In this document: piece after piece, positions 22,021 to 54,879 of the stretch
Numbering within the stretch: position 1 is the first letter of the stretch
Layout: each line of letters opens with the position of its first letter
Origin: Malacoraja senta
Lineage: Eukaryota
DNA: 64,000 nucleotides
Reading direction: 5' to 3'
Assembly: GCA_038087875.1 (NCBI GenBank)
Contig: CM075987.1
Span: 25,174,001-25,238,000, forward strand
Position numbers and translations under genes: made by a program
Notes under the pieces: generated by a model
What the model was told of the DNA's origin: nothing
The model's database searches: none
What the model saw: the letters and a program-made list of their open reading frames with translations, nothing else

Positions 22021-22151
22021 GAATGCTTTCTTATGCTTAAAGACTGTTGATGGTTCCACCGAAGAAAGACAGAAAATGCTGGAGTATCTCAGCGGGACAG
22101 GCAGCATCTCTGGAGAGAAGGAATAGGTGACGTTTTGGGTCGGTCTCGACC

Positions 22152-22205
22152 GGGGTGGGAGATTGAAACCTTCACGCGGTCCGCCCTGTTTCGACGAATG
22201 CAATC
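22152..22205 (+). ncRNA. Minimal HDV-like ribozyme with one P2 mismatch
   Basis: GGGGUGG-GA-GAUUGAA-ACC-UUCACGC-GGU-CCGCCCU-GU-UUCGA-C-GAA-UGCAAUC. Confidence 0.75.
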
Positions 22206-22292
22206 AACCTGGCGTGCACAATCAAATAAGATCAAATAGAACAAGTTGTCCTACAACTTTAGGCTGTGCACGCCATACGCAAGAAGAAGAAG
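22152..22292 (+). mobile_element. 141-bp ribozyme-headed short retroelement, copy 1
   Basis: TSD ggtctcgacc (22142-22151, 22293-22302); (GAA)n tail; 4 differences from copy 2. Confidence 0.9.
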
Positions 22293-23159
22293 GGTCTCGA
22301 CCCGAAACATCACCCATTCCTTTTCTCCAGAGATGCTGCATTTAACATCCATCCAATCTACACCACAGTTGGAGTTCTTGCAGAGCCAAGTTGCTGGAAA
22401 AGATCAGCAATGTTCTGAATGTTATTCAGAATATATCTCTATACATTCCACTTTTCTGTGAATTCACTGCGGGATTGTTACTAGAGGCAACACGCACAAC
22501 AATTGAGAAATCTGACAAGAATAACTATTGCCCTTGTCAATCGGTTCAACATTCAGTTAACTGGAGATACCGTGAACTTCAGTGAATAAAATCATGTATA
22601 TCCTGCGCAATAACCTGAAAGGAAAACATAATGAGAAGATAGACACAAAATGCTGGAGTAACCCAGCGGGACAGGCGGCATCTCTGTGGAGAAGGAGTGG
22701 GTGACGTTTCGGGTCGAGACCCTCCTTCAGACTGAAGATATAGAAGACTGAAGAAAATATAACTTTACAGCTTGGCCAAATAAAATGCTGACAAAGGGAT
22801 ATTTATATATTTGAGCACATTTCATAATATCAGCAGCATGTCTCAGTGTTCTTTATGGCTAACAATGTTTCATATCTTCCCTGGAGATGCTGCCTGATCT
22901 CAAGGGTCACAACCTGAGATGTTGTCCGTCCATTCCTTCCACAGGTGCTACCTGACCCAGTGAGTTCCTCCAGCACTTTATGTTTTGCTGCCTGCTCAGT
23001 TTAGCAATTCCAGTATTTTCTGAAAATAGACACATAAAGCTGGAGTAACTCAGCGGGTCAGACAGCATCTCTGGAGAAAAGGAGTAGGTGTCGTTGTTTG
23101 GGGTCGAGTCTGAAGAAGGGTCTCAACCCAAAGCAATCAGAGTCTGAAGAAGGGTCTCA

Positions 23160-53560: not shown

Positions 53561-53692
53561 AACAAATGTGTTGGAATGGGATTGTCATTGCAAACATCGA
53601 CTCAATGGGCTGAAGGGCCGCCTATGTTGCAAGAAAATATGTAATTGCTTGATTTTTGCATTCTTGTGTTGCATATCAGCGGCAATGTGTTC

Positions 53693-53746
53693 GGGGTGGG
53701 AGATTGCAACCTTCACGTGGTCCGCCCTGTTTCGACGAATGCAATC
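53693..53746 (+). ncRNA. Minimal HDV/CPEB3-like self-cleaving ribozyme, all helices intact
   Basis: P1 GGGGUGG/CCGCCCU (G1.U wobble), P2 GAUUGCA/UGCAAUC, P3 ACC/GGU, L3 UUCACGU, J1/4 GU, catalytic C53736 then GAA. Confidence 0.85.
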
Positions 53747-53833
53747 AACCTGGCGTGCACAATCAAATAAGGTCAAATAGAACAAGTTGTCCTGCAACTT
53801 TAGGCTGTGCACGCCATACGCAAGAAGAAGAAG
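53693..53833 (+). mobile_element. 141-bp ribozyme-headed short retroelement, copy 2
   Basis: gcaatgt direct repeat at 53682-53688 and 53833-53839; (GAA)n tail. Confidence 0.9.
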
Positions 53834-54879
53834 CAATGTCCATTTCATCAGTTTAGGTCCTCGTAAAGTCAGCTAGTGCTCCCATTGCATCACGTCCTAG
53901 TTCCTGATCAACTTCAAACATTATCCCTGCATACACGGGGTCCAGGTCATTAATGAAATTAATTTGATGTGAACTGTACCTGTTTTTCCACGGACTATGC
54001 AAATTAATGCAAGGAAACCTTTTTGGAATCGAACCAGTATGTTGAATCCTCTCAAACATATTCTGCAGGTAATGGAGTTTTCATTCGCAATAAATGACCC
54101 AGAGTGATTAAATTCAATCCACATTCCACCGTGTTACATTTTTTGAAGCTCTAATCTCAAATTAACATGGGCAAGTGTGTAATTTGTTTCACTGTCAGTG
54201 CGGAGTCCCTGTTAATCACATCACTTGCCTATTTCTCATGTTGTTGTGTATTTTATTTATGACAAATAATGATGTATTTTATCAAACCAACATTGAATGC
54301 TCTTGCATTCTCATTGAGTGGATAATGCAAATCGGAGTGCTTTTGGCTATTGCATATTTTTAATTATCAGAAGTGAGTGGAAAGCAGAAAACCCATCCGG
54401 AAATTTCTCCCTTCAGCTGTTTTCTATCAGAATTATGCATTGCCTTGGACTTGTTCTTCCAAAGTCAGTGGGGATAACAAACAGTGTGTGTGAATTAAAA
54501 AAAAAATAGCCTGACAACTTTGAGCGAATGCATTATAGATCTATTCTTCAAGGGCACGGTATTGAATTGGGGTAAATCCCTTTTTGGAAAGATTTTCCAA
54601 GGATCTGTCAATATTGGTTCATGTGACTTTTTATGCTCTGCATGATGTGTTTGTGGTAACGATGCAACTCTTGTATTGTAAGTGTTTTAACTGAATGATG
54701 TGCATCAATAATATCCCTGTCAACAATATAACGTTGCACAATACTGATCCAATATTTTACACAATGAAACGTTACTGTCAAATCAATCTTCAAGAGTTTT
54801 ACAATGTTGTATTTTATCGGGATTTGCTCCTCGGTTATAGATGTAGTAACACTCTGATAATCTGATGCCCTTGTCTTTT

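Follow-up and report, generated by a model that had tools for sequence, protein, structure and literature searches.

A stretch of 64,000 nt from the genome of Malacoraja senta (assembly GCA_038087875.1, contig CM075987.1, positions 25,174,001 to 25,238,000; referred to throughout as the window) contains two copies of a 141-bp repeated element, both on the forward strand. The element is composed of three modules: a 54-nt hepatitis delta virus (HDV)-like ribozyme of the CPEB3 type that lacks helix P4, a hairpin of ~66 nt, and a terminal motif followed by (GAA)n. The features of both copies are listed below in window coordinates, with helices (P), joining segments (J) and loop (L) of the ribozyme head named as in HDV-like ribozymes.

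53693–53833, forward strand: copy 1 of the element, 141 bp, from reading of the sequence
22152–22292, forward strand: copy 2 of the element, with its head at 22152–22205, from reading of the sequence
53693–53746, forward strand: ribozyme head of copy 1, from the descriptor, the fold, an end-to-end match of model R1 and covariation
53693–53699 / 53722–53728, forward strand: P1 of copy 1
53700–53701, forward strand: J1/2 of copy 1
53702–53708 / 53740–53746, forward strand: P2 of copy 1
53709–53711 / 53719–53721, forward strand: P3 of copy 1
53712–53718, forward strand: L3 of copy 1
53729–53730, forward strand: J1/4 of copy 1
53731–53735, forward strand: 5-nt linker in the place of P4, copy 1
53736–53739, forward strand: J4/2 (CGAA) of copy 1, with the presumed catalytic C at 53736
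53747–53816, forward strand: spacer AACC (4 nt), then a long imperfect hairpin at 53751–53816 with an 11-bp basal stem
53817–53833, forward strand: 3' terminal motif TACGCAA, then (GAA)3G, copy 1
53683–53688, no strand: left target-site duplication CAATGT of copy 1, from reading of the sequence
53834–53839, no strand: right target-site duplication CAATGT of copy 1, from reading of the sequence
22142–22151, no strand: left target-site duplication GGTCTCGACC of copy 2, abutting G1
22293–22302, no strand: right target-site duplication GGTCTCGACC of copy 2, from reading of the sequence

Positions within the element are numbered from window position 53693, which is position 1 (G1). The two copies differ at 4 of 141 positions (15, 26, 80 and 102) and both end in (GAA)3G, a tail whose length varies among the copies of the family. 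The target-site duplication (TSD) of copy 2 measures 10 bp and is repeated without mismatch, bordering G1 on one side and directly following the (GAA)3G tail on the other. That of copy 1 is 6 bp long, with four extra nucleotides, GTTC (53689–53692), between the left repeat and G1. An earlier, preliminary description of this DNA had reported the 141-bp element, the second copy at 22152 with four differences, the (GAA)n tail and the flanking direct repeats, all of which are borne out by direct reading of the sequence. In the head of copy 2, a C-to-A change breaks one pair of P2 and a U-to-C change lies in L3.

Downstream of the head, the region 53747–53816 folds with a minimum energy of -24.3 kcal/mol (RNAfold; z = -3.0), with 2 of 200 shuffled sequences folding as well, and the tail of the element matches its own reverse complement. 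The hairpin at 53751–53816 is presumed to be the 3' recognition module. No transfer RNA (tRNA) was detected in the element by ARAGORN, and no match to tRNA, 5S, 7SL or small nuclear RNA was reported by Rfam at E ≤ 10, in agreement with the earlier statement that the element has neither a tRNA head nor an RNA polymerase III (Pol III) box. The tRNA-, 5S- or 7SL-derived head and internal promoter of canonical Pol III short interspersed nuclear elements (SINEs) are absent, and the element, called the SINE below, is SINE-like in size and mobilization only.

The 54-nt head and its relatives

The head forms the nested double pseudoknot of P1, P2, P3 and P1.1 in the canonical HDV order. P1 pairs positions 1–7 with 30–36 over 7 bp that include the wobbles G1·U36 and U5·G32, the former closing P1 at the presumed cleavage site in both window copies. 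J1/2 comprises positions 8–9, and P2, which closes the pseudoknot, pairs positions 10–16 with 48–54 through seven Watson–Crick pairs in copy 1. P3 pairs positions 17–19 (ACC) with 27–29 (GGU), and the single-stranded parts are L3 (UUCACGU), J1/4 (GU) and J4/2 (CGAA). There is no P4 helix, its place being taken by 5 nt. When pseudoknots are disallowed, the 54 nt fold at minimum energy into exactly P1 and P3 (-12.4 kcal/mol), with both strands of P2 unpaired. Direct reading, the descriptor given below and this fold all recover the elements of the double pseudoknot in the order first described. The Rfam CPEB3 consensus agrees with the head in L3 (UUCACGU), in the GU that follows P1 and in the CGAA that precedes the 3' strand of P2, confirming the match to the CPEB3 ribozyme that had been noted at these three segments. 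The residues of the CPEB3 ribozyme named in PMC4836649 include U20, C22, A23, G25 and C57-G58-A59-A60, and the residue numbering used there also fits the head of the SINE.

A generic HDV descriptor of our own, with sequence constraint only at G1 and at the catalytic C, required a 7-bp P1 starting from G, a 3-bp P3, an L3 of 7–8 nt, a P1.1 of 2 bp, a P2 no shorter than 6 bp, a C and 3 nt before the 3' strand of P2, and a spacer of 3–60 nt in the place of P4. A descriptor search had been proposed with the preliminary description; across both strands of the window it yields a single match, at 53693, which starts on the first base of the element as set independently by the TSDs. In 154 dinucleotide-preserving shuffles, amounting to 19.7 Mb, it matched by chance at 5 sites. 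This rate of ~2.5e-7 per position extrapolates to about a thousand chance matches in the 1.94-Gb genome. The head of copy 2 fails the strict descriptor.

The Rfam model RF00622 (CPEB3_ribozyme) was searched against the whole genome (1.94 Gb in 6,182 contigs) with a cut-off of 35 bits, and 39 of the 59 scored candidates lie above this value, the best at 64.2 bits. Ten fetched matches all re-score at 37–64 bits and fall into four families, A–D, within each of which the upstream flanks are unrelated and the downstream sequence is conserved. The 35-bit gathering threshold is reached in this genome by families A–D, including the family D element SINE-D described below. It is not reached by the head of the SINE, and in the whole window Rfam reports no ribozyme at gathering level. 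Regarding the individual families, the family B ribozyme (L104) is of the CPEB3 type, scores 59.7 bits and has CUAA in J4/2 as well as a longer P4, and the family C heads (L105 and L106, both decayed copies) have the core, P2 and the sequence of the 5' strand of P4 in common with the Rfam CPEB3 consensus.

The two window heads and nine heads of families A–D (n = 11) align in perfect register with MAFFT (alignment A1). The invariant columns include U20, U21, C22, C24, G25, U36, G37, U38, C44, A46 and A47, among them the catalytic C (C44) and the L3 residues U20 and G25. Of the 218 cells of the proposed helices, 93.6% are paired, compared with 74.9 ± 1.8 in 500 shuffles, none of which reaches the observed value, and both partners have changed in 16 of 26 pairs, compared with 9.5 ± 1.8 in the shuffles (0 of 500). 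When the pairing partners are slid by 1–3 columns, 36–45% of cells are paired and 0–3 pairs change on both sides. Compensatory change is present in 6 of the 7 pairs of P2, a helix that lies outside all of the covariance models used.

A covariance model built from families A–D only, without the SINE (R1), was run on the window with filters off. Its best match is exactly 53693–53746 (26.5 bits, with a rough E-value of 1.6e-5) and its second exactly 22152–22205 (25.1 bits, with a similarly rough E-value of 4e-5); the next match in the window scores 11.6 bits. The HDV/CPEB3-like fold, for which a covariation check had been suggested, is thereby supported both by covariation with four families in A1 and by the top matches of R1. 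P1, P2 and P3 of the SINE are perfectly complementary, yet unlike those of every relative found.

Copies of the element and ribozyme-headed LINEs

Forty scored matches to the element in the genome are all 97–100% identical to it and nearly all are full length. A 30-nt piece from the middle of the element has 3,457 genome matches and the last 30 nt have 6,417, with none in either case for the reversed control pattern. A sample unbiased for the head was obtained by picking 29 places by tail match alone. Within this sample, dispersed copies of the SINE type account for 22 and agree with the majority sequence at 121–130 of 131 positions; a young multi-copy family with TSDs, as first described, accords with both sets of identities. 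Sixteen of the 22 copies begin at G1, which is the 5'-end pile-up that the preliminary description had proposed to look for; of the remaining six, three begin at position 2 and the others at positions 3, 5 and 11, one copy each. An exact direct repeat of 8–12 bp ends 0–3 nt before the first base in 16 of the 22.

The 5' flanks of the dispersed copies are unrelated, 5'-truncated copies exist, and a 129-bp subfamily (L098–L100) lacks 12 nt from the apical part of the hairpin through a deletion between two ACAA repeats. Dispersed copies, TSDs, tail and 5'-truncations are the marks of target-primed reverse transcription by the enzyme of a long interspersed nuclear element (LINE). With variable TSDs, a simple-repeat tail, 5'-truncations, many dispersed copies and no open reading frame (ORF), the element has the properties of a non-autonomous element mobilized in this way. 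Copy 2 is inserted in a common repeat (window 22100–22151 and 22293–22340) that has a palindromic core (…GTTTCGGGTCGAGACCC…) and adjoins several other SINE copies (L013, L019, L048, L057, L067 and L072).

The common head variants found in copies of three other organisms fit the fold. G8A lies in J1/2, G32A converts a U·G pair into U-A, C54U converts G-C into G·U, and G45U lies in J4/2, where it gives CUAA as in family B. Variable positions of the head number 2 of 34 among paired and 6 of 20 among unpaired nucleotides (Fisher p = 0.04), and the variability of the head does not differ significantly from that of the tail (p = 0.19). Random breakage of P1–P3 by substitutions, named at the outset as evidence that would count against the fold, was not seen between subfamilies.

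The other 7 of the 29 tail-anchored places belong, together with 16 further loci, to an older and longer repeat, termed the L-class, the copies of which are 70–93% alike (loci L031–L036, L039–L041, L043–L045, L053, L054, L056, L059, L061–L069, L086, L087, L090–L092 and L096). Its 5' part is ~315 bp of conserved sequence, its middle consists of 1–3 tandem units of ~128 bp that each end in SINE positions 1 to ~31, and its 3' part contains SINE positions up to ~103 followed by 1.5–3 kb of CT-rich minisatellite, the whole sometimes occurring in tandem arrays. A CCAAT motif and an AT-rich stretch lie ~20–30 nt before G1. The ribozyme is broken in 22 of 23 copies by deletion of the 3' strand of P1 (positions 28–37 or 30–58, or larger), no copy has the last 38 nt of the SINE, and at gathering level Rfam reports no ribozyme in 16 L-class loci.

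The L-class was considered as a possible LINE and ruled out, having only low-complexity CT-rich frames and lacking the last 38 nt of the SINE. Its composition is read as that of an old SINE copy apparently captured in another repeat. If it spreads through RNA, one may speculate that only ribozyme-dead versions could stay whole. Inserted in one L-class unit is a tRNA-derived SINE with a GGTTCGAATCC B box (L034, 933–1288), so that canonical Pol III SINEs coexist with ribozyme-headed ones in this genome.

Family A is a young LINE of ~3.2 kb (LINE-A; L102 and L111, G000:C1:217550485-217553627). It starts with an 84-nt CPEB3-type ribozyme that includes P4 (63.8 bits), carries in the fetched copy an open frame of 930 aa with the domains Exo_endo_phos, Exo_endo_phos_2 and RVT_1, and has a 3' untranslated region (UTR) of ~220 nt that ends in ACACGAAAAGAAGAAGAAGAG, followed by an 11-bp TSD. 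The 23-mer at its 3' end has 214 genome matches, at least 100 of them perfect, five RF00622 matches have the 3' end of LINE-A ~3.1 kb downstream on the same strand, and uninterrupted frames of 940–1014 aa covering nearly the whole query occur in three copies among the matches listed. Elements of the RTE clade are ~3.2 kb long, with a single ORF for an apurinic/apyrimidinic endonuclease (APE) and a reverse transcriptase (RT), no ORF1, and a short-repeat tail. The architecture of LINE-A, with ~3.2 kb, one APE and RT frame and a short-repeat tail, fits these features, and LINE-A is on this basis RTE-like; comparison with protein clusters placed the host in Chordata and otherwise returned generic RT clusters only, with no clade name. 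The terminus of the SINE resembles that of LINE-A (ACACGAAAAGAAG), and the two heads belong to the same ribozyme class with different helices, no closer parent having been found. An RTE-like partner for the SINE is plausible on this comparison.

Family D (L107–L110 and L113–L115) is a second P4-less ribozyme-headed SINE of ~185 bp, SINE-D. Its TSDs of 10–11 bp abut the first G of its GGGG, its tail is GATAAGAAG(AAG), and its 29-nt head has 2,646 pattern matches. SINE-D has no G to pair with U36, a flank-derived T standing there in 4 of 4 copies. Family D had also been considered as a LINE, which was ruled out since no long ORF is present in the 4 kb downstream. A second RTE-like LINE family, LINE-E (L116–L120, e.g. 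G000:C4794:29330-32800), has ~50% protein identity to LINE-A and ends in GGACTCGAAGAAGAAG, close to the terminus of SINE-D. The TSD-defined 5' end of LINE-E scores below threshold with three HDV-type Rfam models, at 21.9 bits for HDV_ribozyme, 21.3 bits for HDV-F-prausnitzii and 14 bits for drz-agam-1, and its P3 is ACC/GGU, as in the SINE. The termini suggest a pairing of the SINE with LINE-A and of SINE-D with LINE-E. In the 3' UTR of LINE-E (L117–L120), ~20 nt before the tail, stands an 11-nt string identical to SINE positions 8–18 (J1/2 and the 5' strand of P2), which may be a chance identity or a trace of recombination.

The autonomous LINE sharing the last 40 nt of the SINE, for which a search had been proposed at the outset, did not come to light, as none carrying the tail of the SINE was found. 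A pattern of positions 59–88 with excluded upstream letters matched only SINE variants, 5'-truncated copies and the L-class, and a pattern of the last 30 nt only SINE variants, the fetched recurrent class among them being the subfamily with the 12-nt deletion. Sensitive BLAST of head plus tail against the window and 30 loci returned nothing, and among 342 kb scanned no other (GAA)n-tailed family turned up.

Proposed mechanism and its alternatives

The element is, in our judgement, likely a promoter-less, non-autonomous retroelement of the type without long terminal repeats (non-LTR), with a ribozyme head, predicted to be catalytic, that would cleave itself at G1 and with mobilization by the enzyme of an RTE-like LINE. 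A sense-oriented copy inside any host transcript would be transcribed by read-through, and the head would fold during transcription, P1 and P3 forming first and P2 then closing the pseudoknot. The ribozyme would cut just 5' of G1 and leave an element RNA with a defined 5'-OH end, capped by its compact fold. The endonuclease and RT of an RTE-like LINE, likely LINE-A, would nick the target, prime on the GAA repeats and copy the RNA to its 5' end, and the product would be a 141-bp insertion starting at G1 with TSDs of 7–13 bp. For this the LINE enzyme would need little beyond the terminal motif and (GAA)n. We infer the catalysis, the read-through source and the identity of the LINE that supplies the enzyme.

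Sequence words of the element are present in sequencing runs of seven organisms. Four runs were compared, two of them raw oligo-dT RNA runs of one relative (organism C) and the others contigs of two further organisms. The element is covered in all four runs and its flanks in one only, apparently at the orthologous locus of a close relative. Among the aligned RNA reads, 93% run on into unrelated flanks, equally in both directions, which implies that copies are transcribed as parts of longer RNAs. In the contigs of another relative, organism D (run X15), the unique flanks of copy 1 are matched over 53600–53717 and 53816–53930 at ~96% identity and into the element; this suggests that organism D has the insertion of copy 1 too, although the contigs bridge by less than 31 nt.

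Several observations weigh against the proposed mechanism. No pile-up of read starts at G1 was found in the two oligo-dT runs of organism C at a threshold of one fifth of depth, so that a start fraction of up to about a fifth would escape listing, and 541 and 488 reads cross the 5' junction compared with 633 and 693 at the 3' junction, counts that show no sign of cleavage. In organism C, then, most RNA containing the element either has not been cut, or is antisense, or stems from decayed copies. The strict descriptor is passed by only 5 of the 22 unbiased copies, and the copies of organism C are mostly 90–99% like the window copy; given this divergence and this pass rate, a majority of uncut RNA is expected either way. 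The Rfam CPEB3 and HDV models do not report the head of the SINE even at E ≤ 10. The structure tested in A1 was derived from the same sequences, and these represent only about five families, so that the shuffle statistics overstate the independence of the evidence, and the E-values of R1 are rough because its calibration was short.

Two further points concern the ends of the element. Conserved sequence lies 5' of G1 in 7 of the 29 tail-anchored matches. The preliminary description had held that copies routinely extending 5' of G1 within a longer element would speak against its reading; this is partly so, in those seven, all of the L-class, and not in the 22 SINE-type copies. At the 3' end, a LINE carrying the hairpin of the SINE was not found in the pattern, BLAST and tail-family searches. 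The LINE partner, probably of the RTE type, that had been anticipated may be represented by the ribozyme-headed, (GAA)n-tailed LINE-A of RTE-like architecture, but the SINE and LINE-A have only ~8 nt and the (GAA)n tail in common.

The lack of a pile-up of RNA reads at G1 also accords with another explanation, in which the double pseudoknot was kept for a purpose other than cutting, shielding the 5' end like a cap or giving the LINE protein a handle, and the G1 end is set by transcription initiation. We consider this unlikely. The unrelated 5' flanks of the dispersed copies leave no shared upstream promoter, and a tRNA-, 5S- or 7SL-like head is not present. Moreover, the residues required in catalysis and not in folding (C44, A46, A47, U20 and G25) do not vary across families, and protection and cleavage are not mutually exclusive.

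A further explanation starts from the L-class, in which the sequence upstream of G1 is conserved and contains the CCAAT motif and the AT-rich stretch. If the loss of P4 had killed a ribozyme inherited from a LINE, the head would be an inactive relic and the family would have been fed by a small number of master loci under a promoter from outside, for instance the upstream sequence of the L-class; that most RNA reads are uncut is in line with this. It is nonetheless a distinctly improbable account. The copies of each of two distinct P4-less families run into the thousands, and P1, P2 and P3 of the SINE are perfectly complementary yet different from every relative found. The L-class itself has no copy with the last 38 nt of the SINE and its head is broken by deletion in 22 of 23 copies, and P4-less forms from phages are active in vitro according to PMC10879173 and 10.1101/2023.06.13.544163. 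That an ordinary SINE came to resemble an HDV-like ribozyme by chance is scarcely credible, for although Rfam is without a match for the head and about a thousand descriptor matches are expected by chance genome-wide, the descriptor match begins with the base that the TSDs mark as the first, the core does not differ from that of CPEB3, R1 scores the head ~15 bits above the best other match in the window, and the helices covary with those of homologous families.

Significance and comparison with known systems

If self-cleavage at G1 and mobilization by an RTE-like LINE are correct, the element would be a chordate promoter-less SINE with a 5' end made by RNA catalysis, and an animal genome would employ the P4-less minimal HDV fold in thousands of places. 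Host transcripts would contain potential self-cutting sites in the thousands, which could affect host RNA processing, and the 54-nt 5' module with the ~85-nt 3' module would constitute a very small natural cassette for an RTE-like enzyme. These points are relevant to how ribozyme-headed LINEs and SINEs make their RNA ends. The origin of the CPEB3 ribozyme also becomes testable through multi-copy LINE heads that score up to 64 bits on a model derived from the intronic ribozyme of mammals.

A broader proposal, which we hold only tentatively and at somewhat less than even confidence, is that this genome preserves the retroelement lineage whose domestication gave rise to the 'mammal-only' CPEB3 ribozyme. 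RTE-like LINEs with full-size CPEB3-type ribozymes, which have sequence-level identity to it in core, P2 and P4, may have spawned a distinct kind of SINE without a Pol III promoter. At 54 nt and without P4, the head of this SINE, its only 5' module, would be the smallest eukaryotic HDV-like ribozyme in nature, with ~8 terminal nucleotides and (AAG)n sufficing for the LINE enzyme.

Within the literature searched, neither this element nor CPEB3-type heads on vertebrate retroelements were found described, Webb 2009 and Ruminski 2011, whose supplements may contain comparable elements, Repbase and Dfam lying outside the search. The novelty first suggested for the element was set too high, as ribozyme-headed non-autonomous elements are in print (PMC3414825, PMC3383444, PMC6765202). 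Three points appear to be new within this search: that an animal genome contains the P4-less minimal form, that the sequence of this form is of the CPEB3 type, and that sequence-level relatives of CPEB3 are present on LINE heads.

The closest known parallels are other ribozyme-headed retroelements. The short internally deleted elements (SIDEs) of R2 and the R2/R1 hybrid SIDEs of Drosophila consist of an HDV-like ribozyme on the 5' side and a LINE-derived 3' end (PMC3414825). They are, like the SINE, non-autonomous non-LTR elements with a ribozyme head, are mobilized in trans, and in the hybrid form join the ribozyme of one element to the 3' end of another, as seemingly occurred in the SINE. 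Unlike the SINE, SIDEs are site-specific to ribosomal DNA, rare, and plain internal deletions of a known parent (PMC3414825), whereas the SINE is P4-less, is present in thousands of dispersed copies and has only ~8 nt and the tail in common with LINE-A. NARTc, with the Pr77 sequence of L1Tc, and the trypanosomatid short interspersed degenerate retroposons (SIDERs) resemble the SINE in being dispersed non-autonomous elements (PMC3383444, PMC3185411, PMC4035085). The 5' HDV-like ribozyme that NARTc has in common with its LINE frees the element from longer co-transcripts. Pr77, in contrast to the head of the SINE, doubles as an internal promoter, measures 77 nt and is not CPEB3-like in sequence, and the hosts are protists with polycistronic transcription (PMC3383444, PMC3185411, PMC4035085).

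Among LINEs, the 5' HDV-like ribozymes of RTE and baggins elements process promoter-less LINEs from read-through transcripts, and some non-autonomous SINEs use HDV-like ribozymes (PMC6765202). The same source, summarizing Webb 2009 and Ruminski 2011, mentions 'hundreds of intergenic copies' of HDV-like ribozymes with conserved downstream sequence. The Sm-alpha hammerhead SINE-like elements and retrozymes likewise carry a self-cleaving ribozyme in a non-autonomous retroelement, but one of another class, and they have Pol III promoters or tandem or circular RNA intermediates (PMC6765202).

With regard to the ribozyme itself, the drz-Mtgn and theta ribozymes share with the head of the SINE an HDV fold without P4 (PMC10879173, 10.1101/2023.06.13.544163). 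According to these sources, P4 is treated as dispensable, minimal drz variants exist, and P4-less HDV-like ribozymes self-cleave in vitro, an activity abolished by changing the catalytic C to U. Such minimal ribozymes are described there as occurring almost exclusively in gut bacteriophages, where they adjoin tRNAs, whereas those reported here belong to chordate retroelements. The mammalian CPEB3 ribozyme is identical to the head of the SINE in L3, J1/4 and J4/2 and agrees with it in helix lengths and numbering. It differs in being a single intronic copy with P4, while the head of the SINE is without P4, has other sequences in P1, P2 and P3, and scores below the Rfam threshold.

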